A DNA stretch of 64,000 bases from contig MGJB01000006.1 of NCBI GenBank assembly GCA_001794055.1, positions 26,168-90,167 on the forward strand, given 5' to 3'. The notes under the pieces are model-generated. The model worked only from the letters and a program-made list of their open reading frames with translations, had not been told where the DNA came from and made no database searches. Of the stretch, positions 7,062 to 26,469 are shown in pieces; position 1 is the first letter of the stretch; every line of letters begins with the position of its first letter. The DNA comes from Candidatus Yanofskybacteria bacterium RIFCSPHIGHO2_01_FULL_41_26. GTDB taxonomy: Bacteria; Patescibacteriota; Minisyncoccia; 2-02-FULL-40-12; GWA2-44-9. Position numbers and translations under genes: made by a program.

Positions 7062-8837
7062 ATGGCGATCAACGTCTCTAAAATCACAAAAGCTACCAAA
7101 TTGCTGCTTTTTGCGTTTCGCAATTACAAAAAGCAATTTTTGGTAATGACAATATTGGGGACGATAAGCGGTTTTTTTGAGAGTATTGGTATTGCCGCCG
7201 TTATTCCCCTTTTCTATCTCATGACAAATACCGGACAGTCCGGCACAGATATTATTTCGCGCACGATACAAAATTTTTTTTCTATCAGCCACATACCCCT
7301 TAATCCACCCGCTATTTTGATTTTTATTTTGCTTCTTTTTTGCGCAAAAGCGGTTGTTTATGTTATAGCCAGATATGTAAACACAAAAGTTACGGGCCAC
7401 TACGAAGAAGACGCGAGAAAAGATCTCTTTAGCCGAACGATGCACGCTTCGTGGAGTTTTATTCTCAACCAAAAAGGCGGCCAATTAGAAAGTATCATTC
7501 TGTACGACATTGAAAAGGCAACTTCAATATTGGGCTTAATCACCGGATTAATACTTACGTTCACCACTTTTTTAACATACGCTTTTGTGGCCTTTAGTAT
7601 TTCAGCCAAAACCACGCTTGCGATAATGGCCATCGGCATTATTCTTTTTTTCATTTATAAACCAATTTTTTACGGGATCAGAAAATTATTCCAAGAAGTC
7701 TCAAGACTGCAAAAAGAATCAAACCACCATGTGGGCGAAAGTATAGCCGGCGCTAAAACCATCAAATCGGCAGCGGTTGAGAAGATAGTGATTAACAAGG
7801 CTTCGGATTATTTTGACCGGCTTCGTAGAGCTAAATTAAGCGCCGCAATTTATAAACAATCCACAGTAAGCCTAATTGAGCCATTGGGATTTGCGGTCAT
7901 TGCTTTTTTGTTTATTACAACTTACCATTCCCCATCATTTAACATCGCCCCATTCGCAGTTATCATGTATTTGATCCAACGAATGTTTAATTATTTTAAA
8001 ACGGCTCAAAATCAAATCCATTCAATTAATGAGGCTGTCCCCTACTTAGGGACGATGTTAAATTATCGTAAAAATGTTGTTGGCAGCAGAGAGATCTGGA
8101 ACGGCGATAAACACTTCTCCCTTAACAAAGAGATCGAATTCAGAAATATTGTATTTGGTTATGTTAAAAATCGGAACGTCCTTTCAAGTTTAAATTTCAC
8201 CATTAAGAAAGGCTGTATTACGGGAATTATCGGAATATCCGGCGCCGGAAAAACAACGATTACCGATCTCCTCCTCAGATTATTCCGCCCTATAGATGGT
8301 AAAATTTTTGTTGACGGTATTGACTTGGAAGATATAGACATTAACGACTGGCGTAAAAATATTGGTTATGTGTCACAGGATATTTTCCTTATGAATGAAT
8401 CCATAGAAAACAATATCCGTTTTTATAATGATAAAATGTCCCAAGCCGACATTATCACAGCGGCAAAAGCCGCGAATATTTACGAGACAGTTCAGTTGTT
8501 TCCGGAAAAATTTAAAACGATCGCCGGCGAAAGAGGGGTTAAGTTATCTGGCGGTCAACGTCAAAGAATCGCTCTGGCCAGAGCGTTGGCCCGCAATCCC
8601 AAGTTGCTTATTTTAGATGAGGCCACCAGTTCCATTGATAATGAATCCGAACAATTGATACAAGAGTCTATACAAAATTTAAAAGGCCGAACAACTATTA
8701 TAATCATCGCCCATCGCTCTTCGTCGGTTATGCAGGCTGATAACTTACTCGTGCTGAAAAACGGACAAATTGTTGAACAAGGAAAACCTTCAGACCTTCT
8801 TAACAACGAAACTTCGTATTTTGCTAAAATTAATTAA
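7062..8837 (+). CDS. ABC transporter, fused permease/ATPase (MsbA/lipid-A-type exporter family).
   Basis: N-terminal 6-TM domain. Walker A GISGAGKTT, ABC signature LSGGQRQRIALARAL, Walker B LLILDEATSSID, H-loop IIIAHR. Confidence 0.85.
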   Translation: MAINVSKITKATKLLLFAFRNYKKQFLVMTILGTISGFFESIGIAAVIPLFYLMTNTGQSGTDIISRTIQNFFSISHIPLNPPAILIFILLLFCAKAVVYVIARYVNTKVTGHYEEDARKDLFSRTMHASWSFILNQKGGQLESIILYDIEKATSILGLITGLILTFTTFLTYAFVAFSISAKTTLAIMAIGIILFFIYKPIFYGIRKLFQEVSRLQKESNHHVGESIAGAKTIKSAAVEKIVINKASDYFDRLRRAKLSAAIYKQSTVSLIEPLGFAVIAFLFITTYHSPSFNIAPFAVIMYLIQRMFNYFKTAQNQIHSINEAVPYLGTMLNYRKNVVGSREIWNGDKHFSLNKEIEFRNIVFGYVKNRNVLSSLNFTIKKGCITGIIGISGAGKTTITDLLLRLFRPIDGKIFVDGIDLEDIDINDWRKNIGYVSQDIFLMNESIENNIRFYNDKMSQADIITAAKAANIYETVQLFPEKFKTIAGERGVKLSGGQRQRIALARALARNPKLLILDEATSSIDNESEQLIQESIQNLKGRTTIIIIAHRSSSVMQADNLLVLKNGQIVEQGKPSDLLNNETSYFAKIN

Positions 8838-10213
8838 ATATTCCTGATTTGGGTCAGATAATTATTAAACCTACGATTTCGAAAGTCCTTAAACTGACCG
8901 GCCTTAAAAAACGCGAGAATTTCTTTAATTCCACTCTGAAGAGAAATCGGGTTATCAAAACCAAGTATTTTTTTAATTTTAGAAAAAGACACTTTGTAAT
9001 CTCTCCTGTCTTTAACAAAATCCGCCTCTTCAATTTTTGAATTTTTAACAAGTTTATTTATTACTTTAGCAATCTGACATATTGTAAAGTTATGGCCGGT
9101 AAAGCCAACATTAAAAATCTGGCCTGAAACTTTTTTTAACGGCGCATCCACTGCCAGCACACAAGCCTCTGCCGCATCATTAACATGTAAAAGCGGCCGC
9201 CATTGCGACCCACCATTGACCATTATTTTATTTTTAAAATAAGCGCTGGCTGTCATCGTGTTGACTACAAGATCAAAACGCATCCGCGGAGACAGCCCAT
9301 AAAGGGTCCCAAATCGTAAAATTACCGGATGGAAATAACTGTTTGCATTTGATAGTAAAAATTTTTCGGAAGAAACTTTTGTTTTGGCATATAAAGATAA
9401 AGGCCTTACCTTGCTCTTTTCGGTCAAGAGTTCGGAACTAGCCCCATAAACACTACAAGAAGATGCAAAAACAAGCCTGGGTACCTGATAGTGACGGCAG
9501 ATCTCAATTAAAGACTTGGTTGAAAAGTGGTTAGTTTCCATTGTATAAACAGGATTAACCGAAGAAGCAGGATCGCCCACCACGCCTGCAAGATGTATAA
9601 CACAATCAACTGACTTAATGCCTTTAATCAATTCCCCTATATTTCTTATGTCGCCCTTTATTAATTTAAAATTTCTTTTTTTTTGTAAATCCATTATTCC
9701 ACGACTGCCAAATGATAAATTATCTAAAACAGTAACCCGATAACCCTTATTCAAGAGCTTGCGAGACAAAATTGACCCAACATAGCCGGCGCCTCCTGTA
9801 ATAAGAACCGACTTGGGAAGAACAGGGTCTTTAATTTTCTCATTAACATAAAGACCGATTAAAACACCCTCTTTATTTAAAATTGGCACTCTTTTTATGT
9901 GACCTTTGAGATAGCCCCTATTTTTAAAAGAAAGATTTATTAGTTCCTCTTTGTTTGTGTCAACACTGGCTGATATAAAATTAGCATTCATAATAGTTGC
10001 AACCGAAGAATCCGGGTCAAAGCCGTCCAAGATTGCTTGTTTTATGTCGCCAATAGTTAAAATCCCCCGCAAGTGATTCTTTTTGTCACAAACAAGACAA
10101 ATCTCAACTTTTTTTCGGTAAAGATCATGAATTGCCTCTTGGAGAGTCGTGGAAGGACTGTAAACATACTTTTTAAATTCTTTTTGTATCATAGAATGTC
10201 TTGATAGTTTCAA
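8834..10213 (-). CDS. CBS-pair domain fused to a GalE-like NAD-dependent epimerase/dehydratase (extended SDR).
   Basis: The N-terminal ~125 aa contain a tandem CBS-like region (HLRGILTIGDIKQAIL ... VPILNKEGVLIGLYVNEKI). Then comes Rossmann motif LITGGAGYVGSIL, and YAKTKVSSE (YxxxK). The 3' end overlaps the ABC gene stop by 4 nt in a convergent arrangement. Confidence 0.7.
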   Translation of the reverse strand: MKLSRHSMIQKEFKKYVYSPSTTLQEAIHDLYRKKVEICLVCDKKNHLRGILTIGDIKQAILDGFDPDSSVATIMNANFISASVDTNKEELINLSFKNRGYLKGHIKRVPILNKEGVLIGLYVNEKIKDPVLPKSVLITGGAGYVGSILSRKLLNKGYRVTVLDNLSFGSRGIMDLQKKRNFKLIKGDIRNIGELIKGIKSVDCVIHLAGVVGDPASSVNPVYTMETNHFSTKSLIEICRHYQVPRLVFASSCSVYGASSELLTEKSKVRPLSLYAKTKVSSEKFLLSNANSYFHPVILRFGTLYGLSPRMRFDLVVNTMTASAYFKNKIMVNGGSQWRPLLHVNDAAEACVLAVDAPLKKVSGQIFNVGFTGHNFTICQIAKVINKLVKNSKIEEADFVKDRRDYKVSFSKIKKILGFDNPISLQSGIKEILAFFKAGQFKDFRNRRFNNYLTQIRNI

Positions 10214-11306
10214 CGATTAAGTCGATCTCTTTTTTAGATATGTGGGAAAAAAGTGGTAACGATAGGACATTATTAGCGACATTATTAGTATTTACAAGCT
10301 GCTTTTTATTTACATAAAATTTATTGTAAGTTTTCTGTAAATGCAATGGCGGATAAAAATATTTTTTTGCGATAATGCCATTTGTTATAAGATGGTCATG
10401 AAGTTGATCACGGTTATAGCCGGTTTTCGACGGATTTATGTAAAGAGAGAAATCTTTAAATGTGCTCTTGCTGTTTTTATGAATGGCCTGAAATTCAATA
10501 TTTTTATCTATCCGTGAAAGTTTATTTTTAAAGTAATTTACAGCAGCCAGACGATCCTTGAGATTCTTATCAATATTTTTTAACGACTCCAGACCTATAA
10601 TGGCATGGAATTCCGACATTCTCGCATTTAAGCCATTGAATTTCGTATTATATGATCCGTCATCGCCATAATTGCGGCCAATCCGGCAAAATTCAGCCAG
10701 AGCTTTATTGTTGGTGGCGATAAGCCCTCCTTCAGCTGCAGTCAAGACTTTTGTCGGACTCAAACTGAAGACTTCGGCGTCCCCAAATACACCCACTTTT
10801 TTACCTTTGAGTTCCGAACCAAAAGCATGGGCAGCATCAAAAATAAGTCTTAAATTGTGTTTATTGCAAATTTTTCTTAGGGCGGCAACATTGCAAGAAT
10901 TGCCAAAAATTTGAGTAGCCAATATGGCACCGGTCTTCGGGGTTATCATCTTTTTAATCGAAATCGGATCTATCTCATAGGTATCTTTTTTTATATCGGC
11001 AAAAACTGGCTTTAAATTATTCCACAACACAGCATGACCAGAAGCAGAAAATGTAAAGCTTGGCAAAACAACTTCGCCCCTGACAGCTAATCCTTTCAGA
11101 ACCAGCATCAAGCCGGAAGTGCAGGAAGAAACTGCTATGCAATACTTGACCCCCAGATACTTGGAAGCATTATCTTCAAATAATTTAACGTATTTACCGT
11201 TTGTAAGAATCCCGCTTTCAATAACCTCCTTGAATCTGGGGGCATATTTTTTGTATTTTGATAATGTTGGTTTTGTTATTGGTATCATGTTTATTAAAAA
11301 TAGCAT
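10173..11306 (-). CDS. PLP-dependent sugar aminotransferase of the DegT/DnrJ/EryC1/StrS family (LegC/PseC-like).
   Basis: The family lysine motif is present: FSLSPTKVLTAAEGG. GxxG PLP region CIAVSSCTSGL. Confidence 0.85.
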   Translation of the reverse strand: MLFLINMIPITKPTLSKYKKYAPRFKEVIESGILTNGKYVKLFEDNASKYLGVKYCIAVSSCTSGLMLVLKGLAVRGEVVLPSFTFSASGHAVLWNNLKPVFADIKKDTYEIDPISIKKMITPKTGAILATQIFGNSCNVAALRKICNKHNLRLIFDAAHAFGSELKGKKVGVFGDAEVFSLSPTKVLTAAEGGLIATNNKALAEFCRIGRNYGDDGSYNTKFNGLNARMSEFHAIIGLESLKNIDKNLKDRLAAVNYFKNKLSRIDKNIEFQAIHKNSKSTFKDFSLYINPSKTGYNRDQLHDHLITNGIIAKKYFYPPLHLQKTYNKFYVNKKQLVNTNNVANNVLSLPLFSHISKKEIDLIVETIKTFYDTKRI

Positions 11307-11313
11307 TAGGCGA

Positions 11314-11721
11314 CTAATGCTGTTTAATTTTCCTTAGAACTTTAACGGGGCAACCAACGGCTATTACGTTATCCGAAATATTGGAGTTAACAAAACTATG
11401 AGCGCCAACAACAGAGTTGGTACCTATCGTAACTCCCGGCATGATCGTGCTGTGCGAGCCAATTCTGCAGTTTCGCTTTAGTATAACCCGGCCCTTTTTG
11501 TGGTCAATGGTGGATAAGGAATAAATCGAACAATGAGATCCTATCTCAACATTATTTCCAATCGTAACACCGTGTTTCGCATTTATGTAAGTAAAAGCAC
11601 CTATGTCTGTTTCCTGACCAAGCTTAAGGTTTTCCGGATGCTGAACCATCCAATTCCACTTGGTTAATTCGCCATGTTTTATCTTCGGCTTTTTCCAGTT
11701 TTTAAATCTCTTTTGAGCCAT
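11314..11721 (-). CDS. Sugar N-acetyltransferase with left-handed beta-helix (hexapeptide-repeat) fold (PglD/LegH/WbbJ-like).
   Basis: Tandem hexapeptide repeats: GNNVEIGSHCSIY, IGSHSTIMPGVTIGTNSVVGAHSFV. 135 aa. Confidence 0.8.
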   Translation of the reverse strand: MAQKRFKNWKKPKIKHGELTKWNWMVQHPENLKLGQETDIGAFTYINAKHGVTIGNNVEIGSHCSIYSLSTIDHKKGRVILKRNCRIGSHSTIMPGVTIGTNSVVGAHSFVNSNISDNVIAVGCPVKVLRKIKQH

Positions 11722-12873
11722 TTAGTAGGTTATCTTCTTTGTTAATAATCTATCGTCAATATTAATATTTTCTAGAATTTTAGCAACCCTTGGTCCAGTT
11801 TTTCCATCACCCCAAGGATTTTTTATTTTAGCTAATTTTGCCAGATATTTTTTATCGTTAAGCGACTTATTTATGGCTCGAAATATTTCATTTTTATCAT
11901 GTCCAACATTTATTACATTTTCCCCACACTGTCTTCCCGCTTGACGAGTGCCAATATTTACAACAGGCGTTTTAAAGGACGGGGATTCAATCATTGCGCC
12001 GCTTGAATTTCCTATCCAAACGACAGCCTCCCTCTCAATAGCCAAAAAATATTTATGATCAAAACTGGGATATATATGAAACAGTGGGTTTGATCTTTCT
12101 TTATTTATAGCCCAAATTATTTGGCTTCCACCCTCATCAGGGTGAGGATAAATAACAACTACTGGCAGATTGAATTTTTTTACAGCCTCGATTGTTGTGC
12201 TCATCTGCTCGCCGGCCCGATCAACTTCTTCGCTTACCGGGTGCTGGATCAATAAGATAAATTTTCCATTCGAATCAATGGCCAATTTTTTAAAAACTTC
12301 TTTTCTGGAAGGAAGTTTTTCGTTAAGCATAACGTCGATAGCCGGAGCACCGACAACGTGAATTCGCCAATTCTCTTCACCCATCTTTTTTATCCTTTCT
12401 GCTGCCTCTTTGGTAGCCGGAAAATGAATATGGGATAATTTAGTAATCGCATGCCTTGCCATATCATCAACAGTCCCACTTTTATCACCGCCATGGGTAT
12501 GAGCCATCGGAATTCTTAAATAAGTACAAGCCAATGCTGTTGCTAAGGTTTCAGGCCTATCGCCTTGAATCAAAACCAAATCAGGCCTATCCTTTCGAAA
12601 CTTGACTGTCAATTCTTTTATAAAATCAGCCACAAACTGAACGGTATCAGAATTGCTACCCATCCCAAAAATCGCTTGTATCGGCTCGGTTTTTGGAAAT
12701 TCGGAAGTAACGTATTTAGCTGTTTTTCCTAATTCCGGCATAAGATGCACACCGGTTGTGTATATCTTCAATTTTAAAAACTCGCTTTTTTTGATGGCTT
12801 TTAAAACAGGCGTTATCAATCCGAAATCAGCCCTAGTTCCAGAAATGTATGCAATTTTTTTAATTTTCCTCAT
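11722..12873 (-). CDS. UDP-N-acetylglucosamine 2-epimerase, hydrolysing type (NeuC/LegG-like).
   Basis: N-terminus IAYISGTRADFGLITPVLKAI. Motif HTHGGDKSGTVDDMARHAITKLSHIHFP (HxHGGE/D-type). Size 383 aa. Confidence 0.8.
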   Translation of the reverse strand: MRKIKKIAYISGTRADFGLITPVLKAIKKSEFLKLKIYTTGVHLMPELGKTAKYVTSEFPKTEPIQAIFGMGSNSDTVQFVADFIKELTVKFRKDRPDLVLIQGDRPETLATALACTYLRIPMAHTHGGDKSGTVDDMARHAITKLSHIHFPATKEAAERIKKMGEENWRIHVVGAPAIDVMLNEKLPSRKEVFKKLAIDSNGKFILLIQHPVSEEVDRAGEQMSTTIEAVKKFNLPVVVIYPHPDEGGSQIIWAINKERSNPLFHIYPSFDHKYFLAIEREAVVWIGNSSGAMIESPSFKTPVVNIGTRQAGRQCGENVINVGHDKNEIFRAINKSLNDKKYLAKLAKIKNPWGDGKTGPRVAKILENINIDDRLLTKKITY

Positions 12874-13919
12874 TAAATTAAATTTCTATTCAACAATGTC
12901 CCTCTTTTTATATATTTTTTAGCCCTCTTCCCAAGTACTTTATCAAAATATTTAGGAGCTAATCCATTGGCTGGTCTTTTGATATCCAGATTGTTCCGGG
13001 TAAATCTTTCGCCTTTTTTGATATCTCGAACAGCAACAATGCTTCTTCTTATCACCAATAACTTTTTCTCCGATTCTGTCGGTTTCTTAATAGCAGAACC
13101 AAGAATGATATTTACAGCTCGTACTTCATCAACCATCTTCTTAAAATCTATTCGATTAGACGAAGTCCTATGATCCGGTCCGGGAAGATTATTATCCAAA
13201 GTTAAGTGTTTCTCAATAACACAGGCCCCTAAAGAAGTGGCCATTACAGCAACCTGCGAACCGTTAGTATGATCTGAATACCCGACCAAAACATTTAGCT
13301 CCTTCATCATGGTTTGCATCGCCCTTAAATTAATTTCTTCAGAAGGACAGGGGTAGTTTGTTGTACAATGCAAAACGATTATTTTATCACCACCGGCTTT
13401 TTTTATTGTTTTAACAGCTTCTTTAACCTCTGCCATTGTTGCCATACCCGTTCCCAAAATCATCGGTTTTCCCAATTTGGCCGCATAGGTAAGAAGGGGC
13501 AAACTCGTCAGGTCTCCTGAACCGAACTTGAACGCCGGAACACTAAAATCTTTAAGCAGATCAACAGAAGCAAAACTTCCATGAGGAGTCGAAAGAAAAA
13601 TTATCCCCATTTTTTTGCAGTGAGCAATAACTTGCGGATACCAACTCTCATCAAATTCCAACTTCCTTAACATTTCTATCTGACTTTCAACTTTACCAAG
13701 ATTTTTCTTTTGATATTCAACCATCTCTCCGGATTCGGTTACCACCTGCTCTGCCCGAAAAGTCTGAAATTTAACCGCATCAGCCCCGGCACTTGCCGCC
13801 GCATCAACGAGTTTCAAGGCCAAATCCAGTTTCCCGTTGTGATTAACTCCGGCTTCGGCAATAATAAAAACAGGTTCATTGTATCCAATTCTGCGGTTTT
13901 GTATTAAAATATTTTTCAT
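12873..13919 (-). CDS. Nonulosonic acid synthase (NeuB family; N-acetylneuraminate/legionaminate/pseudaminate synthase) with C-terminal SAF domain.
   Basis: N-terminal signature IIAEAGVNHNGKLDLALKLVDAAASAGADAVKFQTF. 348 aa. The C-terminal ~60 aa are antifreeze-like/SAF. The start overlaps the upstream gene stop by 1 nt. Confidence 0.9.
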   Translation of the reverse strand: MKNILIQNRRIGYNEPVFIIAEAGVNHNGKLDLALKLVDAAASAGADAVKFQTFRAEQVVTESGEMVEYQKKNLGKVESQIEMLRKLEFDESWYPQVIAHCKKMGIIFLSTPHGSFASVDLLKDFSVPAFKFGSGDLTSLPLLTYAAKLGKPMILGTGMATMAEVKEAVKTIKKAGGDKIIVLHCTTNYPCPSEEINLRAMQTMMKELNVLVGYSDHTNGSQVAVMATSLGACVIEKHLTLDNNLPGPDHRTSSNRIDFKKMVDEVRAVNIILGSAIKKPTESEKKLLVIRRSIVAVRDIKKGERFTRNNLDIKRPANGLAPKYFDKVLGKRAKKYIKRGTLLNRNLI

Positions 13920-14611
13920 TGCGAACGTAAAATGGCTTCAGCCAATTTAAAATCAATGAGTTCATCTATGTCCACAGATCTTTCGCGTGGCATTAGAAAA
14001 ATTTCCGAATTATCGTCAATTATCTTGTCATTTTTCATAAGTATTTCTCTTTTTACAACATAAACAGCGCCGTTTATTTTATAAAGTTTCGGTAATTCTT
14101 GACTTCTTTTTTTTGTTCCAGAACCTCTCAAAAAAAGAACTGCTTTTCCATCTTTGAGTTTATACATCCATTCGGGCCTTTCACTTATTTCGCAAACCCC
14201 GATACACGAACCTGCTTTTGTTTTAAACATCTTTTCTATGGCACCATCGATGTCATCAACCGAAACAAGAGGACTGGTGGGCTGAATAAGGACTATCAAA
14301 TCCGCATCAAAACCATTTGAGGAGAAATATGCAACAGCGTGCTGAAGAACATGTTCCGGCCGAGCGGTATCAGTGGCAAGTTCGGCCGGACGGATAAATG
14401 GAACTTCGGCACCATACTTTTCACTAATCTTAGCAATTATTGGATCATCGGTAGACACAATAATCCTGTCAATATAATCTGACAATAACGCGGCTTTTAT
14501 AGCATAACTAATCATCGGCTTGCCATTGAGCTTCTTTATGTTTTTTCTTGGTAATCTTTTAGACCCACCTCTTGCTGGTACAATGGCTAATATTTTTTTA
14601 TTTTTATACAT
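13916..14611 (-). CDS. CMP-nonulosonic acid synthetase (acylneuraminate cytidylyltransferase family, NeuA/LegF-like).
   Basis: N-terminus ILAIVPARGGSKRLPRKNIKKLNGKPMISY matches the CMP-NeuAc synthetase P-loop-like motif. 231 aa. Confidence 0.85.
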   Translation of the reverse strand: MYKNKKILAIVPARGGSKRLPRKNIKKLNGKPMISYAIKAALLSDYIDRIIVSTDDPIIAKISEKYGAEVPFIRPAELATDTARPEHVLQHAVAYFSSNGFDADLIVLIQPTSPLVSVDDIDGAIEKMFKTKAGSCIGVCEISERPEWMYKLKDGKAVLFLRGSGTKKRSQELPKLYKINGAVYVVKREILMKNDKIIDDNSEIFLMPRERSVDIDELIDFKLAEAILRSQ

Positions 14612-14617
14612 AAAATT

Positions 14618-15871
14618 TTATTTTACCTGATGTCTTAGCTTCAATTTTCCTTTTTCTTTTTTCCACAAATGAGGCGAACGAAATTTGTCAGCTAACTCCA
14701 TAAAATATTTCTTATTCATCAAAGATCGTTTAAACATCTTGGAGGCTTTGGGAAATTCTTTTTTTGTAATGCTTAAATACTCCCACAACTCATCAGCAAA
14801 TCTTTCTGGAAATTCTCCGTCAAATCTTTTTATCAGAGAGACTCCTTCTTCACGGGTTATTTCACCCGAACGAACTTCTTGGGAAGCATCATATGTCGCC
14901 CGGCCGATACCGAATTTGATAAAGGTGGTGTAATAATGAAGATCGTCGACCTTATCGTCAATACTATTATATTTGCTGTAGGTACCGGGTGTTCTTTCCG
15001 GCGAGGCCTGAAAATTGCCATTCTCAACTGCATAATAATATGTTTCTTGAGGGTGCCACTTGATATAATAACCTAGATAGTGAACCTCAACCTTGTTTTT
15101 TAATATATCCTTCGGATTGGCCGGAAGATAAGCATTAAGATCATTTTTACTCACTCCATATTTTTTTATCAGGTCAGAAAAAGAAGTTCCGCCAAGGTAG
15201 ATCTTCGACTTATCTTTGGCAGTAAAATAAGACCAATCACGTTTTGCTTTTTCATTATCAGCAATTGGATTGCCATATTCAGCCTCGTTTTCTCCATACA
15301 ATACCAGGGGTATTTTATATAAAACGGCTAATTTTGGCGCCAAAGCTTTCTGGCCAATAATAAACGGCTGGAAGGGATGGAAGAGATTTTCTGTAGCCAA
15401 ACGTGTAAGCAAACGATGCACTCTTCCGTTTGGAGTAAATAAAATATTATCCAAACCTGAACATATCCACGCCTGAAAATTTTTCCAGCCCCAAGAAGTA
15501 TAAACATGAGGTGCCCAAGTTACCGTAAGAGGATGCATCCCGTATTTATATTTCAGTAAATGTGAAGCATAAAAACTATCTTTCCCCCCCGAACCAGGAA
15601 TAATACAGTCGTAAGAACCGTCATTTTTTCTAAAACGATTCAACAGCCTTAGTAGTTCTTTCTCCCGTTTTGTCCAATCAATTGTTTTCTTTTTATCCAT
15701 CACGCGACAAGCATCACAAATCCCGTTTTTATCAAAATTTATAGTTTCTTTTTTGCTTTCTTTGGTATGAGAATATTCTACTACCGAATTCGGGCGTTGA
15801 TTTGAAATAACACATCTTTTGCAAAATCTAACTTCGGATGGCAAGCCAAATAAGGTTTTTGTTTTTTTCAT
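14618..15871 (-). CDS. N-acetyl sugar amidotransferase (WbpG/PseA-like PP-loop ATP-pyrophosphatase).
   Basis: PP-loop SGGKDS within IIPGSGGKDSFYASHLL. N-terminal CxxC pairs (CKRC...CDAC). It sits directly upstream of HisH/HisF-like genes, which is the classical triad. Confidence 0.75.
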   Translation of the reverse strand: MKKTKTLFGLPSEVRFCKRCVISNQRPNSVVEYSHTKESKKETINFDKNGICDACRVMDKKKTIDWTKREKELLRLLNRFRKNDGSYDCIIPGSGGKDSFYASHLLKYKYGMHPLTVTWAPHVYTSWGWKNFQAWICSGLDNILFTPNGRVHRLLTRLATENLFHPFQPFIIGQKALAPKLAVLYKIPLVLYGENEAEYGNPIADNEKAKRDWSYFTAKDKSKIYLGGTSFSDLIKKYGVSKNDLNAYLPANPKDILKNKVEVHYLGYYIKWHPQETYYYAVENGNFQASPERTPGTYSKYNSIDDKVDDLHYYTTFIKFGIGRATYDASQEVRSGEITREEGVSLIKRFDGEFPERFADELWEYLSITKKEFPKASKMFKRSLMNKKYFMELADKFRSPHLWKKEKGKLKLRHQVK

Positions 15872-16524
15872 AAGGCTTTAACTAAATTAACAAAGTTTTT
15901 TATTATTCGGAGTCCGACTTGGCCGCTTTTTTCAGGATGGAATTGAAAACCATATACATTTCCCTTCTGAACAGTAGAGCAAAATTGATATCCTCCATAG
16001 ATAGTAGTTGTTAAAATCGCTTTTTTATCAATTGGCTCAAGTATATATGAGTGGACAAAATATACATAAGGATCTTTCCCGATAGAGTTGAGAATATCTC
16101 CTTCAGGTTTTGTGCTATTTGAGAGTGTTATTTTGTTCCATCCGATATGAGGTATTTTGATTCCCATTTTAAGCCCTGGGAACTTTACCACTTTCCCAGA
16201 AATTATATCAAGGCCCCTAAATTCGCCAAACTCATATCCCTTTGACAACAGAAGCTGCGCCCCAAGACAAATTCCCAAAATTGGCTTTCCTTTTTCGGCA
16301 AATTTTTTAATTTCCCCTTCTAGCCCACGTGCCTTTATGCCTTCCATTCCCGCTTCAAAAGAACCTACGCCCGGTAAAACTAAAGCATCTAATCGATTTA
16401 TTTCTTCAGTGTTTTCAACGATTACCACATCGTCAATGAATTCTCTTAATGCTTTGCGCAGGCTATAAAGATTGCCTACCCCATAATCAACAATGCCGAT
16501 TTTTTTATTATTAGACCCTGACAT
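15868..16524 (-). CDS. hisH: Glutamine amidotransferase, imidazole glycerol phosphate synthase HisH-like subunit. It is a paralog used in sugar acetamidino formation.
   Basis: IGIVDYGVGNLYSLRKAL, with catalytic-triad context (GICLGAQLL, HSY...FHPEKS). There are no other his genes nearby. Confidence 0.85.
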   Translation of the reverse strand: MSGSNNKKIGIVDYGVGNLYSLRKALREFIDDVVIVENTEEINRLDALVLPGVGSFEAGMEGIKARGLEGEIKKFAEKGKPILGICLGAQLLLSKGYEFGEFRGLDIISGKVVKFPGLKMGIKIPHIGWNKITLSNSTKPEGDILNSIGKDPYVYFVHSYILEPIDKKAILTTTIYGGYQFCSTVQKGNVYGFQFHPEKSGQVGLRIIKNFVNLVKAL

Positions 16525-17269
16525 TGATTTTTTTCTTAAATAAATATTCTTTTAAATTTTTTATTTTAAAATCTCCGTAGTGGAATGAGGTGGCAATGGC
16601 AACAGCATCGATTTTGGTTTTTTTTATTACTTTAACAACAGATTCCTTTGTCCCCGCCCCACCATGAACTACAAGGGGTACTTTACAAAATTTAGAAACC
16701 TCACTAATCAATTCCGTATCATATCCTTTTCGCGAACCGTCTCTGTCAATCGAAGTTATAACCACCTCGCCTACACCTAAAACAAGAGCTTTCCTTATCC
16801 ACTCAACCGCATTAATGCCTGTATGTTCCCGGCCGCCATCAGTATATGCTTCCCAAGTCCCATCATTTCTGTGTTTTGCTTCTACCGAAAGAACAATGCA
16901 CTGGGAACCGAATTTTTTTACCGCTTCGTTCAGAAACTTGGGTTTTTTTATTCCATAAGTATTTATGGCGACCTTGTCGGCTCCAGCTCGAAGAGCATTA
17001 TTTATATCATTAACAGAACGTATGCCTCCGCCAACTGTTATGGGAATGAAAATTTCTTCTGATACTGACCGCAGAAGATCAAAATCAAAATTTCTCTGGT
17101 ATAAACTGGCAACAATATCCATGCATAAAAGTTCATCGGCGCCATCTTTATAATATTTAAATGCAAGCTCTTTAGGATTTCCGACAACCCTAAGCCCTTC
17201 AGTAAAAATACCTTTCACAACATTAGTGCCCTTAATATCAAGACGGGGAATTATTCTTATATTTTCCAT
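16511..17269 (-). CDS. hisF: Imidazole glycerol phosphate synthase cyclase HisF-like subunit ((beta/alpha)8 barrel). Paralog partnered with the WbpG-like amidotransferase.
   Basis: IPRLDIKGTNVVKG...ADELLCMDIVAS...PITVGGGIRS...VVHGGAGT, typical of HisF. Confidence 0.85.
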   Translation of the reverse strand: MENIRIIPRLDIKGTNVVKGIFTEGLRVVGNPKELAFKYYKDGADELLCMDIVASLYQRNFDFDLLRSVSEEIFIPITVGGGIRSVNDINNALRAGADKVAINTYGIKKPKFLNEAVKKFGSQCIVLSVEAKHRNDGTWEAYTDGGREHTGINAVEWIRKALVLGVGEVVITSIDRDGSRKGYDTELISEVSKFCKVPLVVHGGAGTKESVVKVIKKTKIDAVAIATSFHYGDFKIKNLKEYLFKKKINVRV

Positions 17270-17418
17270 TGTCTCAGTTTTTGAAATTCATTTTCTTTTT
17301 CATAATTTATAACATTAATCAACACTTCAGTCCAGAATTAAAATATTATACCTGCCGGTATAAAAATAAATCCCCACATTGACGTGAGGATGATCTTAAA
17401 TTAAACTTTTCTCAAGGT

Positions 17419-18981
17419 TCAGGATTTTATCAATGACAGATTGGATCGGCGAGAAGCGCCTTCCCATCGCACATCTGAAAATTTCGGCTCGCCATGAAGC
17501 TCTCGCCATGTTTTTTCATATTCTTTTATTCGCTTAATATCTCGATTTACCATTAATTCTCTGAGGCCGAGCAGCTCAACAGCGGTGAAGTTTTCGCAAA
17601 TGACAGCCGTCATCTTTGTGGCATCTCCTAGATCTGTTAAAAACGCATCCAGGTCGCCGTCATATTGAGCCAGAATTTTATCTTTATATTTGTTGAACCA
17701 TTCTGTGCCCGGATATGGAGTAGCAAAAAAGGGCATAACCTCAATACCGAGCCGTTCCCAAGCCTGAACACAATCAATCAAGCTGTCAAAAAAGTCATCC
17801 GGAAAGCCCATCATTTGATTAGGAATTGGCCGTATCCCTGCTTCCAGGGTTATTTTCAGAGATCTCTCGTTAGTTTCTGGAGTAGAACCTTTGCCTACAT
17901 TTTTAAGAACTCGTTTGGAAAAAGATTCGTAGCCATAAACTAATTGGCAACAGCCGGCATTATGCATCTGTTTAAGAATTTGTGGATTAGCCAGCGCTGC
18001 ATGACTGGTTCCACCCCAGTGTATTCCATGACATTTTTTCGGGTCATGAGACACGCCATCGCGTACACATTGAGGCTGTAAACCCTCTTTGATCCACAGA
18101 TCGCATAAAGCTGGCAGCCAGGTATTCTTTGAAGCAGAATTCATTGCCAGAAGGTTTTCATCATAGAAAATAATGAAATCAACTCCAAATCTGTCTCTCA
18201 TGTGTTTGACCATATCTACCAGATAACGAGGACTGTGCATTCTATTAATACGGTCGTGAGTAAAAACAACATCAGCTTTATCATTTCTTTGATCTTCATA
18301 CTGAAGGTCTCCTGCCAATCCAAGATGAAAACAGAAACGGCATATAAACGGACAACCGAAACTTCCATTTACATCCATGCGTCTTTTGGCGGTGAAACTT
18401 TCTTCGCTATAAAGGAGCGCACTGTTTTTGAAATATATTTCCATAGGCAGCATATCCCATGTCGGATATGGTAATTGATCAATGTCTTGAACAAGAGGCC
18501 GCGGCGGATTTAAATGTAATTGTCCCCTCTCATCCTTCCAGATAATTCCAAGCGTAGATGACCAATCGGTTTTTTTATCGTCTATTTTTTGCATTATTTC
18601 CGGCAGAGTTAAGAATGCTTCTCCAACAACTCCAATATCGATCTCCGGCAAGAGTTCCATCAAGTCTCGAGGCATACTGGTTAAAAGTCCGCCTCCGACC
18701 ATGCGAAGCGATCGAGGAGAATATTGTTTGGCATACCGGAGGGCTTTTTTTACCCAGCTGTATGTAGTTGTTATGCCACCAAGCCCGATAATATCCCAAT
18801 CATCGGCCTTCAAAATCGCACAAATGGTTTTATCATCAGGCCTCCAAGCGTTGGCATCAAATAATTGGACATGATGCCCCTCTTTATCAGCAATCGCCGC
18901 CAACTGGGCAATTCCGTAAGGAATATGTTTTGGGTTGTCTTCTTGGCGTACAACGGGGTTAATGAGCAGAATTTTGGCCAT
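17419..18981 (-). CDS. Cobalamin-binding (class B) radical SAM protein, copy 1.
   Basis: N-terminal B12-binding Rossmann-like domain (KILLINPV...IIGLGGITT...MVGGGLLTS). Radical SAM cluster motif CPFICRFC (CxxxCxxC). The ORF track start at 18999 is a TTG. The in-frame ATG at 18981 is preceded by GGAGAAAGAG and abuts the upstream gene stop, so it is preferred. Confidence 0.75.
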   Translation of the reverse strand: MAKILLINPVVRQEDNPKHIPYGIAQLAAIADKEGHHVQLFDANAWRPDDKTICAILKADDWDIIGLGGITTTYSWVKKALRYAKQYSPRSLRMVGGGLLTSMPRDLMELLPEIDIGVVGEAFLTLPEIMQKIDDKKTDWSSTLGIIWKDERGQLHLNPPRPLVQDIDQLPYPTWDMLPMEIYFKNSALLYSEESFTAKRRMDVNGSFGCPFICRFCFHLGLAGDLQYEDQRNDKADVVFTHDRINRMHSPRYLVDMVKHMRDRFGVDFIIFYDENLLAMNSASKNTWLPALCDLWIKEGLQPQCVRDGVSHDPKKCHGIHWGGTSHAALANPQILKQMHNAGCCQLVYGYESFSKRVLKNVGKGSTPETNERSLKITLEAGIRPIPNQMMGFPDDFFDSLIDCVQAWERLGIEVMPFFATPYPGTEWFNKYKDKILAQYDGDLDAFLTDLGDATKMTAVICENFTAVELLGLRELMVNRDIKRIKEYEKTWRELHGEPKFSDVRWEGASRRSNLSLIKS

Positions 18982-18982
18982 A

Positions 18983-20050
18983 TTATTCTCTTTCTCCAAC
19001 CCTTGATCCTACTAACTCTTGATTATTTCTCTGACTGAATTTAGATAAGAATTCAGTCAGAGGGACGAAATGAACCAGTTCATCAAAAAGTATGCCGCCT
19101 TCAGTGCAATTGTATGTAATGCAACCAGCATCTTTGGCTAAATCCAGAAAAATATTCCGATACCAAAGATATGCCGGATCGGTATACCATGTCTCATTCA
19201 AGTAGGGATTATAAACCTGTGTAAAAGCCTCTGGCGTTCTATCTCCAAAAAGAGCAACAAGATCTCGGTAGTATTGAGTATTGAGAAGCGGAGTACCAGG
19301 CGCATAGCTTAAATCCATACCAACCAACGCAACATGTTTTCGTTTTAGTATTGCATGCGCAAAAATCCAAGCAGCAGTTCCAACATTGCCGCCGGTAAGC
19401 ATACAAGGTATGTGATTATTCTCAAAAAGCTCCCTGGAAAGACTCTCCGATTTGTCATAATCTTCATAAATAGGATTCCACCAATACAGTTCCATTCCCG
19501 ATTCCACGCATCTTTCCGTAACAGAAATATCGACACTGGTAGATATTATCAACTTGATCTTGGGACCATATCGGTTTACAAGCTCGATAGTTTCACGATT
19601 ATAGCGAATCTGATCTTGGTGATGACCAGGATCAAGATCTTGGCGAAGAAAATAATCATCTTCTAATCCCTTGTCCATTTTAGTATCGCCAAACAATCTT
19701 ACCATGCGGTGGCTTCTACCAAATGCGCCAGGATCAAGCGTAATAACAAAATGAGGAATAAGACCCTTTCTTAAACAATGCCCTAAAGACCCGTCGGCGA
19801 CAATAATATCACCAGAAAATCCTGAAGCCAAAATCTTAGCCACAGGATTTTTTCTATGCAAACTTGGTCCTCCAACAACTACAATAGCGGCTCCTTTCGG
19901 CTCCAAATGTTCTATAACAGACAAATCATCCACCGTTTTACTAAAATATTTTCGATTTTTAGCGGCATTATCCAGACCAAGCCGGCCGGTTTTTATAGCT
20001 GTCGCTTCGCTCATATAACAAGCAAGTTTATCTGCCAAATTAGATATCAT
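18983..20050 (-). CDS. DUF115/MptE-like (Maf-type) Rossmann-fold protein, putative nonulosonic-acid glycosyltransferase.
   Basis: Region GAAIVVVGGPSLHRK...DIIVADGSLGHCLRKGLIPHFVITLDPG resembles the DUF115 core of motility-accessory-factor glycosyltransferases. It is adjacent to the nonulosonic-acid module. The ORF track start at 20104 is a TTG without SD. The ATG at 20050 follows GGAGAGG and is preferred. Confidence 0.45.
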   Translation of the reverse strand: MISNLADKLACYMSEATAIKTGRLGLDNAAKNRKYFSKTVDDLSVIEHLEPKGAAIVVVGGPSLHRKNPVAKILASGFSGDIIVADGSLGHCLRKGLIPHFVITLDPGAFGRSHRMVRLFGDTKMDKGLEDDYFLRQDLDPGHHQDQIRYNRETIELVNRYGPKIKLIISTSVDISVTERCVESGMELYWWNPIYEDYDKSESLSRELFENNHIPCMLTGGNVGTAAWIFAHAILKRKHVALVGMDLSYAPGTPLLNTQYYRDLVALFGDRTPEAFTQVYNPYLNETWYTDPAYLWYRNIFLDLAKDAGCITYNCTEGGILFDELVHFVPLTEFLSKFSQRNNQELVGSRVGERE

Positions 20051-22112: not shown

Positions 22113-22147
22113 AAAATTGGTAATTGTTATTAATAGGTCATTTCGAC

Positions 22148-23152
22148 ATGATTATATCTCGAACACCATTCCGAATATCTTTTTTTGGTGGAGGCACCGA
22201 TTACCCTGCTTGGTATAAAAAGAACGGCGGGGCCGTTCTTTCAACAACAATCAACAAGTATTGTTATTTAAGTTGTAGAAATTTGCCTCCGTTTTTTAAA
22301 CATACATACCGTGTTGTTTATTCGCGTCAAGAATTAGTAAATAAAATTAAAGACATAGATCATCCCTCTGTCAGACATGCATTAAATTTTCTGAATATAG
22401 ACGGCGGGGTTGAGATACATCACCAAGCCGATCTTCCGGCAAGATCCGGACTTGGTTCAAGTTCATCTTTTACCGTTGGTCTAGTAAATGCTCTAAGCGG
22501 TCTTAAGGGTGAAGTCAAGAACAAAAGACAACTGGCCCTTGACGCAATAAATATTGAACAGAATTTGATAAAAGAAAATGTCGGTTCCCAAGATCAAACA
22601 GCAGCGGCTTTTGGAGGTTTTAATAAAATAAGTTTTGGAGGAATCCAGGAAATATCAATACAACCAATAATTATAAATTCAAACCGTATTGAATCGTTCC
22701 AAAATCACCTGATGTTATTTTTCACCGGTCTTTCAAGAAATGCTTCTAAGATAGCTAGGGAACAGATTAAAAACATTGAAAATAAAGATAAGGAATTAAA
22801 AATAATGCATGAACTTGTCCATGAAGCGACGAACATTCTTACAAACAACAGAGCAGATCTGGCTGAATTCGGTAAATTAATGGGGCAGGGCTGGAAAATA
22901 AAAAAATCCTTGTCATCCAAAATAACAAACCCGTATTTAGATAATATACACGACGTGGGAATGAGAGCAGGAGCATTGGGATGTAAATTGCTTGGCGCCG
23001 GGGGCGGTGGATTTATATTATTTTTTGCAAAACCGGAAGATCAAGAAAAAATTAAAAAGAAACTAAAAAACCTATTATACGTCCCCTTCCGATTCGATCA
23101 TCTTGGCAGTCAAATAATTTACTACGCTCAAGACAACAATGAAACTTATTAA
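22148..23152 (+). CDS. GHMP-family sugar kinase, D-glycero-D-manno-heptose 7-phosphate kinase (HddA)-like.
   Basis: MIISRTPFRISFFGGGTDYP N-terminus, as in HddA. GHMP motif PARSGLGSSSSFTVGLVNAL. The ORF track start at 22124 is a TTG. The ATG at 22148 matches the family N-terminus. Confidence 0.75.
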   Translation: MIISRTPFRISFFGGGTDYPAWYKKNGGAVLSTTINKYCYLSCRNLPPFFKHTYRVVYSRQELVNKIKDIDHPSVRHALNFLNIDGGVEIHHQADLPARSGLGSSSSFTVGLVNALSGLKGEVKNKRQLALDAINIEQNLIKENVGSQDQTAAAFGGFNKISFGGIQEISIQPIIINSNRIESFQNHLMLFFTGLSRNASKIAREQIKNIENKDKELKIMHELVHEATNILTNNRADLAEFGKLMGQGWKIKKSLSSKITNPYLDNIHDVGMRAGALGCKLLGAGGGGFILFFAKPEDQEKIKKKLKNLLYVPFRFDHLGSQIIYYAQDNNETY

Positions 23153-25734: not shown

Positions 25735-26469
25735 ATGCTGAAAAAAATCAAACTATCTTTTGCGGACAAGAAATCTCTTGCAATGAAATCAATTGAAATA
25801 GCTCCAATAAACATTGACTTGTCAAAAATGATAGTTAATAAACCTTGGGGATATGAGTACCTTCTTACAAATACTCCGCTGGTGGAGGTTTGGCATCTAT
25901 CACTTGATTACTTGAAATCAACTTCAACACATTGTCATCCTAACAAAAAAACAGCCCTTGTCGTGTTAGAGGGCAAGGCCCTTTTCTCGACCCTAAATAA
26001 ATCCGTTAAACTCTCCCCGATGGATGCGATAATAATAGATGCTGGTGTTTTTCATTCAACTAAGTGTATCTCAAAAGAGGGTCTTAAATTACTTGAAGTT
26101 GAGACACCCCCGATGAAACATGACTTAATCCGGCTTAAGGATAGATATGGCAGAACTAACGCTGGATATGAAGGCAAAGAAAAGATGCAATTAATAAATA
26201 ACTCTTATGTTAAATTCAAAAGCGAGGAACCTCACGTGGTAAAAAACTTCTGTAATAATTACCTTTGTTTGTCCTTTATACAAAATGACAACGACCTAAG
26301 AATTTTATTGTCCCAAAAGCCAGAGTTGGCAGTAATCTTAAACGGATTCATCAAATCAGCGGATAATAATATCTTATACCGTCTCGGTGATGTCATAAAA
26401 ACCAACACGCTCAAAAACAATAAAATAAAATTTAATAATGTCTCGCTCCTCTCAATTTCAAAAGCCTAA
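25735..26469 (+). CDS. Cupin-domain protein (function unknown; possible sugar ketoisomerase/epimerase-type cupin).
   Basis: Double-stranded beta-helix-like central region with His residues (WGYEYLL...THCHPNKKTALVVLEGKA...AGVFHSTKC). 244 aa. No close family assignment is possible by eye. Confidence 0.4.
   Translation: MLKKIKLSFADKKSLAMKSIEIAPINIDLSKMIVNKPWGYEYLLTNTPLVEVWHLSLDYLKSTSTHCHPNKKTALVVLEGKALFSTLNKSVKLSPMDAIIIDAGVFHSTKCISKEGLKLLEVETPPMKHDLIRLKDRYGRTNAGYEGKEKMQLINNSYVKFKSEEPHVVKNFCNNYLCLSFIQNDNDLRILLSQKPELAVILNGFIKSADNNILYRLGDVIKTNTLKNNKIKFNNVSLLSISKA

Follow-up and report, generated by a model that had tools for sequence, protein, structure and literature searches.

The 64,000-nucleotide (nt) stretch analysed here, referred to below as the window, covers positions 26168–90167 of contig C6 in the 18-contig, 0.8-Mb assembly, rated 100% complete, of Candidatus Yanofskybacteria bacterium RIFCSPHIGHO2_01_FULL_41_26, a member of the candidate phyla radiation (CPR). 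At 8834–17269 it carries nine co-directional open reading frames (ORFs) on the minus strand, leaving no space for further genes, which combine a nonulosonic acid (NulO) biosynthesis module with an amidotransferase and its HisH- and HisF-like partners. An earlier reading made from the sequence alone (hereafter the sequence-only reading) had placed nine contiguous genes here, and all nine ORFs were found at those coordinates; the gene content that it listed stands, and its order, which followed ascending coordinates, is the reverse of that of transcription. Family assignment with Pfam and NCBIfam models and their curated cut-offs gave the following list, in transcription order.

16511–17269, minus strand: HisF-like protein (WbuZ-type), first gene of the operon; PF00977, 216.7 bits
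15868–16524, minus strand: HisH-like class-I glutaminase (WbuY-type); TIGR01855, 209.6 bits, and PF00117
14618–15871, minus strand: PP-loop N-acetyl sugar amidotransferase (NASAT; WbuX/WbpG/PtmG family); TIGR03573, 390.4 bits
13916–14611, minus strand: cytidine monophosphate (CMP)-nonulosonate synthetase (CTP_transf_3 cytidylyltransferase, hereafter CMP-transferase); PF02348, 101.6 bits
12873–13919, minus strand: NeuB/LegI-type nonulosonate synthase, condensing with phosphoenolpyruvate (PEP); TIGR03569, 426.5 bits
11722–12873, minus strand: hydrolysing nucleoside diphosphate (NDP)-HexNAc 2-epimerase (NeuC/LegG type); TIGR03568, 375.8 bits
11314–11721, minus strand: 135-aa acyltransferase of the left-handed β-helix type (mini-LbH), presumed N-acetyltransferase of a 4-amino sugar; PF00132 Hexapep
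10173–11306, minus strand: DegT-family aminotransferase dependent on pyridoxal phosphate (PLP), DesI-like; PF01041, 338.8 bits
8834–10213 (likely coding sequence 8834–10192), minus strand: fusion of a CBS pair with a Cj1427-like extended short-chain dehydrogenase/reductase (CBS-SDR); PF00571 and PF01370

The junctions, in transcription order, measure −14, −4, +6, −4, −1, 0, +7 and −41 nt, negative values denoting overlaps, so that the HisH gene shares 14 nt with the HisF gene and 4 nt with the WbuX gene. The last junction, between the DegT and CBS-SDR genes, shrinks to −20 nt if the ATG at 10192 is taken as the start codon of CBS-SDR, as in the database copy, a choice that yields an overlap equal to that in two related loci (L010 and L101, see below).

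With a probability of about 0.68, this single CPR operon builds a CMP-activated 5,7-diamino NulO of the legionaminic acid (Leg) type, one N-acetyl group of which is converted to an N-acetimidoyl group. The combination of the amidotransferase triad with NulO genes is already established in Legionella and Campylobacter; the novelty lies in the replaced front end, i.e. the CBS-SDR, DegT and mini-LbH genes.

The amidotransferase and its HisH- and HisF-like partners

The NASAT family has been described in PMC10607449, and the window protein carries everything by which its members are recognized: a score above the cut-off of the family model (390.4 vs 203.2 bits for TIGR03573), the PP-loop SGGKDS and the tetracysteine Zn motif (C17/C20/C52/C55), both invariant in the alignment. 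It matches the Legionella pneumophila NASAT structure (PDB 8WEX) with 734.6 bits over residues 3–416 and its identity to the copy in the L. pneumophila genome is 73%. More than 580 relatives were recovered when one genome per species was scanned, and the synteny counts given here use the best 80, which are 67–76% identical to the window protein and come from Pseudomonadota (including three Legionella species), Bacillota, Cyanobacteriota, Nitrospirota, Armatimonadota, Verrucomicrobiota and two other CPR lineages. Among these best 80 loci, 79 have a HisF-like and 76 a HisH-like gene; where at least 19 kb of sequence was available (54 WbuX loci), homologues of NeuB, NeuC and the CMP-transferase were all present in 47. 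Within the phylum itself, only six of the 301 sampled genomes encode a WbuX above cut-off; each of the six has a NeuB-like gene, in four of them within 4 kb, compared with 42 of the 301 genomes that have NeuB-like genes overall. The link between the triad and the nonulosonate genes is therefore supported by orthology and conserved synteny, beyond mere adjacency.

In the alignment of amidotransferases from Leg-type clusters (A4, loci L020–L068), a tightly conserved subgroup to which the window protein belongs, the columns average 82% identity in at least seven phyla; in most of these loci, the HisF, NeuB and NeuC proteins encoded alongside are just ∼ 30–50% identical to those of the window.

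The closest characterized counterpart is the lipopolysaccharide (LPS) O-antigen locus of L. pneumophila. The serogroup 1 O-antigen is a polymer of 5-acetamidino-7-acetamido legionaminic acid (Leg5Am7Ac) (PMC3766260), and in the L. pneumophila LPS loci HisF and HisH adjoin an 'LPS biosynthesis protein' and NeuA/B/C (PMC3694923). The window has the same triad and back-end genes in one cluster, with identities to the L. pneumophila proteins of 73% (amidotransferase), 50% (HisF), 46% (HisH), 41% (NeuB), 35% (NeuC) and 37% (CMP-transferase), and the Legionella HisF paralogue shares the Glu130 signature discussed below. The Legionella loci differ in gene order (WbuX-HisF-HisH) and contain no dehydratase gene, whereas the window has its own CBS-SDR/DegT/mini-LbH front end. 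Legionella places the sugar on its LPS; a CPR cell is expected to have neither an outer membrane nor LPS. The same amidination of Leg is carried out in Campylobacter jejuni by PtmG (bioRxiv 10.64898/2026.04.20.719630). Dedicated HisH and HisF partners of a PP-loop amidotransferase also make the acetamidino sugars of Pseudomonas aeruginosa O5 (WbpG/HisH2/HisF2), Escherichia coli O145 (WbuXYZ) and Methanococcus maripaludis (AglXYZ), and the window triad matches each of the family models TIGR03573, TIGR03572 and NF038364. However, the substrates of these WbpG/WbuX/AglX systems are 2,3-diacetamido-2,3-dideoxy-mannuronic acid (ManNAc3NAcA) or N-acetylfucosamine (FucNAc), not nonulosonates.

The HisH protein scores above cut-off with TIGR01855 (209.6 bits) and contains GICLGAQ and FHPEKS, which we take to provide the Cys and the His/Glu of its catalytic triad. 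The HisF-like protein falls below the cut-offs of two models, with 278.4 bits for the hisF model (cut-off 294.55) and 266 bits for the WbuZ model TIGR03572 (cut-off 299.7); it retains Asp11 but has Glu at position 130 (D130E). The same combination of Asp11 and Glu130 is seen in 73 of the 79 HisF orthologues encoded beside WbuX. Cohnella cholangitidis has both forms, a canonical HisF (383.6 bits, Asp130) encoded beside hisA and a Leg-cluster paralogue (292 bits, Glu130). The window pair shows the features of WbuY and WbuZ: adjacency to the amidotransferase, location outside a his operon and distinctness from canonical HisF.

These data bear directly on the possibility that HisH and HisF are left over from histidine biosynthesis and just happen to lie beside sugar genes. 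The scores alone would allow it, as the hisH model is passed and the hisF model is missed by just 16 bits. Yet the whole assembly yields a single hisF and a single hisH match and no match to hisD or hisG, in searches that matched 14 of 14 control genomes, and this genome, rated 100% complete, gave no second hisF- or hisA-like match; the same pair accompanies WbuX in 79 of the 80 orthologue loci, and Cohnella keeps a Glu130 paralogue in addition to its Asp130 enzyme. The remnant explanation has a negligible probability and is refuted for practical purposes. The statement in the sequence-only reading that there are no other his genes thus extends to the entire assembly. The inference, made in the same reading, that the triad together with a NulO module makes an N-acetimidoyl legionaminic-type sugar is backed by the NASAT orthology, the synteny, the absence of the his pathway and the NeuB tree described below.

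By analogy with imidazole glycerol phosphate synthase and with WbpG/WbuX/AglX, the ammonia released by HisH would be channelled to the amidotransferase via the HisF-like barrel. A predicted complex of the HisF-like protein with the amidotransferase scored 0.28 relative to a mark of 0.32, which counts neither for nor against binding. If the operon works as proposed here, a 0.8-Mb CPR genome without a histidine pathway would be retaining HisH and HisF solely for amidinating a surface sugar.

Synthase, epimerase and the proposed pathway

Which nonulosonate is made was judged from the synthase, the epimerase and the CMP-transferase; the assignment of the synthase to LegI rather than true NeuB rests on HMM cut-offs, PDB scores and a tree labelled by genomic context. 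Profile classification of the synthase, a check proposed in the sequence-only reading, put it above the cut-off of the NeuB/LegI model TIGR03569 (426.5 vs 399.65 bits) and below that of PseI (318 vs 340.25 bits). Its best PDB match is Bacillus subtilis SpsE (225.5 bits), followed by C. jejuni PseI (199 bits) and Neisseria meningitidis NeuB (191 bits). In a tree of 66 synthases from WbuX loci and CBS-SDR contigs, which holds no Neu5Ac-specific NeuB references, the window protein groups with two CPR sequences (support 100), one of them a Minisyncoccia synthase that is its sister, and this group nests inside a large clade that includes the Legionella synthases and those from clusters with verified LegB and LegC.

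The epimerase scores 375.8 bits with TIGR03568 (cut-off 235.9), and its PDB matches are 5XVS, a hydrolysing GDP/UDP-N,N'-diacetylbacillosamine 2-epimerase (191 bits), human GNE (181 bits) and N. meningitidis SiaA (60 bits). The CMP-transferase qualifies as a CMP-nonulosonate synthetase; its best NCBIfam match is PseF (188 bits, below the cut-off of 205.7), no LegF-named model is among its NCBIfam matches, and its best PDB matches (118–123 bits) are synthetases of CMP-N-acetylneuraminic acid (CMP-Neu5Ac). Three of the enzymes expected of a CMP-legionaminic pathway, a NeuB/LegI-type synthase, a hydrolysing LegG/NeuC epimerase and a CMP-nonulosonate synthetase, are present. The operon encodes no PseG and no GNAT-type acetyltransferase. 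A pseudaminic acid pathway, which was also considered, is ruled out by the NeuC-type epimerase, by the lack of PseG and GNAT and by the scores for PseI, PseC, PseB and PseF, all of which are below cut-off. The best reading of these sequences is a legionaminic-type product, a term that here spans the Leg, 4-epi-Leg and 8-epi-Leg stereochemistries.

It would be quite improbable, in our estimate, for NeuC, NeuB and the CMP-transferase to make Neu5Ac while CBS-SDR, DegT and the LbH protein serve the synthesis of a different, 4-acetamido sugar, for instance one derived from GDP-heptose or GDP-mannose of the same glycan island, with the amidotransferase modifying either Neu5Ac or that sugar. TIGR03569 does not tell NeuB from LegI, and human GNE matches the epimerase nearly as well as LegG does. 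The window also has an HddA-like heptose kinase and Gmd, Fcl-like and CDP-dehydratase-like modules, and Cj1427, the nearest characterized relative of CBS-SDR, acts on GDP-heptose. In E. coli O145, whose locus directs Neu5Ac synthesis as well, WbuX has been assigned to the acetimidoyl sugar FucNAm (PMC10607449), and a putative Neu5Am has been reported (bioRxiv 10.64898/2026.04.20.719630). However, the CBS-SDR/DegT pair travels with NeuB in contigs from CPR bacteria, Nanoarchaeota and Hodarchaeales that show no nearby heptose genes, and in the window all nine genes form one tightly packed operon with overlaps. Moreover, the amidotransferase falls in a tight orthologue group of Leg-type clusters, not in FucNAc or ManNAc3NAcA contexts, and the synthase nests among those from Leg-type clusters.

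For the legionaminic-type product we propose a pathway of seven steps. CBS-SDR would oxidize NDP-N-acetylglucosamine (NDP-GlcNAc) at C4 to a 4-keto sugar, the DesI-like DegT protein would transaminate C4, the amino group becoming N7, and the mini-LbH protein would acylate the new amine. The NeuC/LegG-type enzyme would then strip the nucleotide and epimerize C2, the NeuB/LegI-type synthase would condense the product with PEP and the cytidylyltransferase would form the CMP-sugar. Finally, the PP-loop amidotransferase would activate the acetamido carbonyl with ATP and replace its O by NH, with ammonia supplied by HisH via the HisF-like barrel; the converted group is most likely N5, as in Legionella. 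Judging by sequence, the last four steps appear orthologous to those of known Leg5Am7Ac clusters, and the first three look like a non-orthologous replacement of LegB/LegC/LegH or PglF/PglE/PglD. Control of the entry step by nucleotide ligands is the probable role of the CBS pair.

This follows the logic of the GDP-linked pathway of C. jejuni (LegB, LegC, LegH, LegG, LegI and LegF, plus PtmG), with keto sugar formation, transamination, acetylation, epimerization, PEP condensation, CMP activation and amidination. The C. jejuni enzymes differ in the first two steps, as the window SDR and DegT proteins fail the LegB and LegC models (see below), and in the place of the CBS domains, which are fused to the SDR in the window. 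In C. jejuni they sit on the nucleotidyltransferase PtmE.

The replaced front end: dehydratase or C4-dehydrogenase

By far the closest solved relative of CBS-SDR is Cj1427, a GDP-D-glycero-D-manno-heptose C4-dehydrogenase (PDB 6VO6, 166.8 bits; next match, 106.8 bits). An AlphaFold model (pLDDT 89.3) has the same protein as its top fold match (TM 0.91–0.93, 34% identity), and we take a twice-repeated strand/helix pattern in its N-terminal 125 residues to be the CBS pair. The motif FAS[ST]CSVYG is invariant in the family, with C-S following the catalytic Ser/Thr in 17 members from CPR, DPANN and Asgard genomes. At the same site, verified LegB has TSE, Gmd of the window SSE, and the PglF-like and CDP-dehydratase-like sequences DK (T-D-K in PglF-like). 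Cj1427, too, carries a Ser where dehydratases have their Glu, and it shares the segment SPRMR..DL..VN with CBS-SDR. It differs in having no CBS pair, in modifying a heptose and in feeding epimerases and reductases, not an aminotransferase of a NulO operon (PMC10680097); the CBS-SDR family, in addition, has an invariant Cys where Cj1427 has Asn. Statements about active sites rest on alignments and on PMC10680097.

The aminotransferase, which contains SLSPTK with what is presumably the PLP lysine, is closest to DesI (model score 283 bits; best PDB match 2PO3, 191 bits). The sequence-only reading had suggested classifying it against the LegC and PseC clades, and it falls short of both (175 bits with a cut-off of 420 and 214 bits with a cut-off of 423.5, respectively); the DesI score is below cut-off as well. 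It is 23–34% identical to LegC/PglE-type proteins of other WbuX clusters. The mini-LbH protein matches the NeuD/PglB/VioB model with 60 bits (cut-off 160.8) over its C-terminal part only and lacks the N-terminal domain of PglD. The former argument that an LbH rather than a GNAT acetyltransferase favours a legionaminic product proved weak, given a 135-aa protein without that domain whose best matches are O-acetyltransferases.

As had been remarked in the sequence-only reading, no PglF/PseB-like 4,6-dehydratase is found in the module, whose only SDR fails both the LegB (109.7 bits, cut-off 475) and PseB (49.7 bits) models. The suggestion that another SDR of the window takes this role fared less well: none of the 10 extended SDRs genome-wide exceeds the LegB or PseB cut-off, and the other dehydratase-like SDRs in the window belong to other sugar modules. 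All 10 extended-SDR genes of this 0.8-Mb genome lie in or beside the window (8834–64000 and C6 just beyond). For the remaining suggestion, that CBS-SDR itself fills the gap, its position next to a conserved aminotransferase partner fits, but on chemical grounds the suggestion is not supported, as CBS-SDR lacks the catalytic acid and resembles a C4-dehydrogenase.

Several points weigh against the pathway as drawn above. By profile scores and motif, the operon has no 4,6-dehydratase with a catalytic acid of the LegB/PglF type: CBS-SDR reaches only 109.7 bits with the LegB model and is without the acidic residue carried by all four dehydratase types compared, and Cj1427, its nearest characterized relative, oxidizes C4 without dehydration (PMC10680097). 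The PDB matches of the mini-LbH protein are led by O-acetyltransferases (54 bits), ahead of a perosamine N-acetyltransferase (38 bits). The DegT and LbH proteins stay below all curated cut-offs of the LegC, PseC and PglD type, so we infer where the amine sits and how it is configured. Sequence does not show when in the pathway the amidotransferase acts or which N-acetyl group it targets, and in the literature searched, which was covered in part, there was no product chemistry for any CPR organism. Nor did this partial coverage yield a paper on nonulosonic acids in CPR/Patescibacteria or on a CBS-SDR in such pathways.

Comparison with other clusters shows how unusual this front end is. Among the 54 long WbuX loci, 30 have a LegB-type SDR, five a short PglF/PseB-like SDR (one of them together with a LegB-type SDR) and 20 have none; an SDR of the CBS-SDR type was found in none of the 54. 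In L021 and L048, the two loci searched with the LegB and LegC models alike, both models exceeded their cut-offs. A DegT gene immediately beside CBS-SDR, with NeuB within 10 kb, was found in five contigs, assigned to Nanoarchaeota (L008), Hodarchaeales (L009) and CPR-like bacteria (L010, L100 and L101), and L010 and L101 also hold HisF-HisH-WbuX in the same order as in the window. The position of the mini-LbH gene is occupied in L101 by a 109-aa Hexapep gene. More generally, the genes that fill the acyltransferase slot from NeuC to DegT form a cassette of varying content (L008, L010, L100 and L101). Its versions include mini-LbH; FemAB-like, AMP-binding (adenylating) and methyltransferase genes; an acyl carrier protein, phosphopantetheinyl transferase, AMP-binding protein, iron-containing alcohol dehydrogenase, LuxE and LuxC; and GNAT with a formyltransferase, a PIG-L deacetylase and folate enzymes. 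Such variation implies that the acyl group on N7 differs.

Among named relatives, L020 (8582–19204) of a Minisyncoccia metagenome-assembled genome (MAG) is nearest to the operon and presents a clean front-end swap: it has the same HisF-HisH-WbuX order and a front end composed of a short PglF/PseB-like SDR and a PglE/PseC-like aminotransferase. NeuB and NeuC of the window are 62% and 60% identical to those of L020, and 57% and 65% identical to those of L101, which has the CBS-SDR front end. Since the type of front end switches inside one tight NeuB clade, the two types are suggested to deliver the same intermediate.

The alternative is that CBS-SDR acts purely as a C4-dehydrogenase and leaves the 6-hydroxyl in place, in which case the product would be a 5,7-diamino-3,5,7-trideoxy nonulosonic acid with a 9-hydroxyl, in acetamidino form, and the bound NADH could be re-oxidized by 2-oxoglutarate from the adjacent aminotransferase. 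Beyond the closeness to Cj1427 in sequence and fold and the invariant S/T-C-S where all compared dehydratases have Asp or Glu, this alternative draws on the segment SPRMR[FL]DL[VL]VN, which Cj1427 also has and which the LegB, Gmd, CDP-dehydratase-like and PglF-like members of the SDR alignment (A2) lack, and on the requirement for 2-oxoglutarate in every published assay of Cj1427 (PMC10680097). The SDR and aminotransferase genes overlap every time, and five related clusters have no other SDR. Against this, NeuB and NeuC are equally close to the cluster with the PglF-like front end and front ends switch within the tight NeuB clade, the invariant Cys beside the catalytic Ser could be a non-canonical acid/base for dehydration, and no paper on such a sugar was found in a partial literature search. 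We regard the 9-hydroxy product as unlikely, and the remaining weight lies mostly on a true 9-deoxy Leg-type sugar made via an atypical dehydratase. The broader proposal, that CBS-SDR is a dehydrogenase redox-coupled to DegT through 2-oxoglutarate and glutamate and that its CPR, DPANN and Asgard relatives likewise make 9-hydroxy 5,7-diamino NulO, is doubtful. If CBS-SDR does dehydrate, it would be a Cys-using 4,6-dehydratase of a new mechanistic class; a conserved CBS-SDR/aminotransferase entry pair that fails the dehydratase test would point either to such a mechanism or to a new nonulosonate class, common to CPR, DPANN and Asgard.

Neighbouring genes and host genome

The operon is flanked by the following features.

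17345–17391, minus strand: terminator-like hairpin (17391–17370) 3' of the upstream radical-SAM gene, followed by a TATAAT box (17350–17345) before the HisF start
7062–8837, plus strand: ATP-binding cassette (ABC) exporter of the PglK/MsbA/HepA type, convergent neighbour; HepA-family 348 bits, PglK 216 bits, both below cut-off
17419–18999, minus strand: B12-binding radical S-adenosylmethionine (SAM) enzyme, upstream neighbour; PF02310 and PF04055
18983–20104, minus strand: mini-Maf/MptE-like protein, upstream neighbour; PF01973, 48 bits

The hairpin and the TATAAT box mark a probable operon boundary; this is weak evidence, as the region has 11 terminator-like sites vs 10.7 expected from shuffled sequence, i.e. 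no enrichment. The ABC exporter is a possible flippase for a lipid-linked glycan; an ABC gene directly follows CBS-SDR in L010, and a 48%-identical one is present in L020. The mini-Maf/MptE-like protein is a candidate nonulosonate transferase. Together with the radical-SAM gene it forms a pair (41–42% and 51% identical, respectively) that adjoins WbuX/HisF/HisH clusters in L078 (13194–15800) and L086 (16954–19500), from a Nitrospinaceae MAG and an Alphaproteobacteria MAG.

The sole small-subunit (SSU) rRNA of the assembly (C4:1454–3071, locus L003, on a 5.7-kb contig) scores as archaeal (1378.7 vs 1021.6 bits for the bacterial Rfam model), which raised the possibility of an archaeal (DPANN) host for the window contig. 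This was ruled out, and the locus was treated as CPR bacterial, because contig C6 encodes SecA (1119 bits), 8 kb from the window, and the nearest homologues of CBS-SDR carry the names Parcubacteria or Paceibacterota. The 5.7-kb rRNA contig is probably mis-binned and derived from a DPANN-like archaeon.

The surrounding glycan island also holds Gmd, two Fcl-like genes, a CDP-dehydratase-like gene, two RfbH-like DegT paralogues and a second NeuB paralogue. A branch of the island leading to GDP-heptose, the substrate of Cj1427, is hinted at by an HddA-like D-glycero-D-manno-heptose 7-phosphate kinase (22124–23152; 154 bits, below cut-off). This single island amounts to about a tenth of the genome, an outlay on glycan genes that, along with the retention of HisH and HisF, would suggest that a charge-neutralized, sialic acid-like coat is important to the lifestyle of these cells.

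In the phylum sample, many Patescibacteria NeuB-like genes lie in ORFs of ∼ 625–665 aa, about twice the normal length (e.g. G085:C2:19571–20539 and G061:C2:91055–92017), which suggests fusions with another domain.

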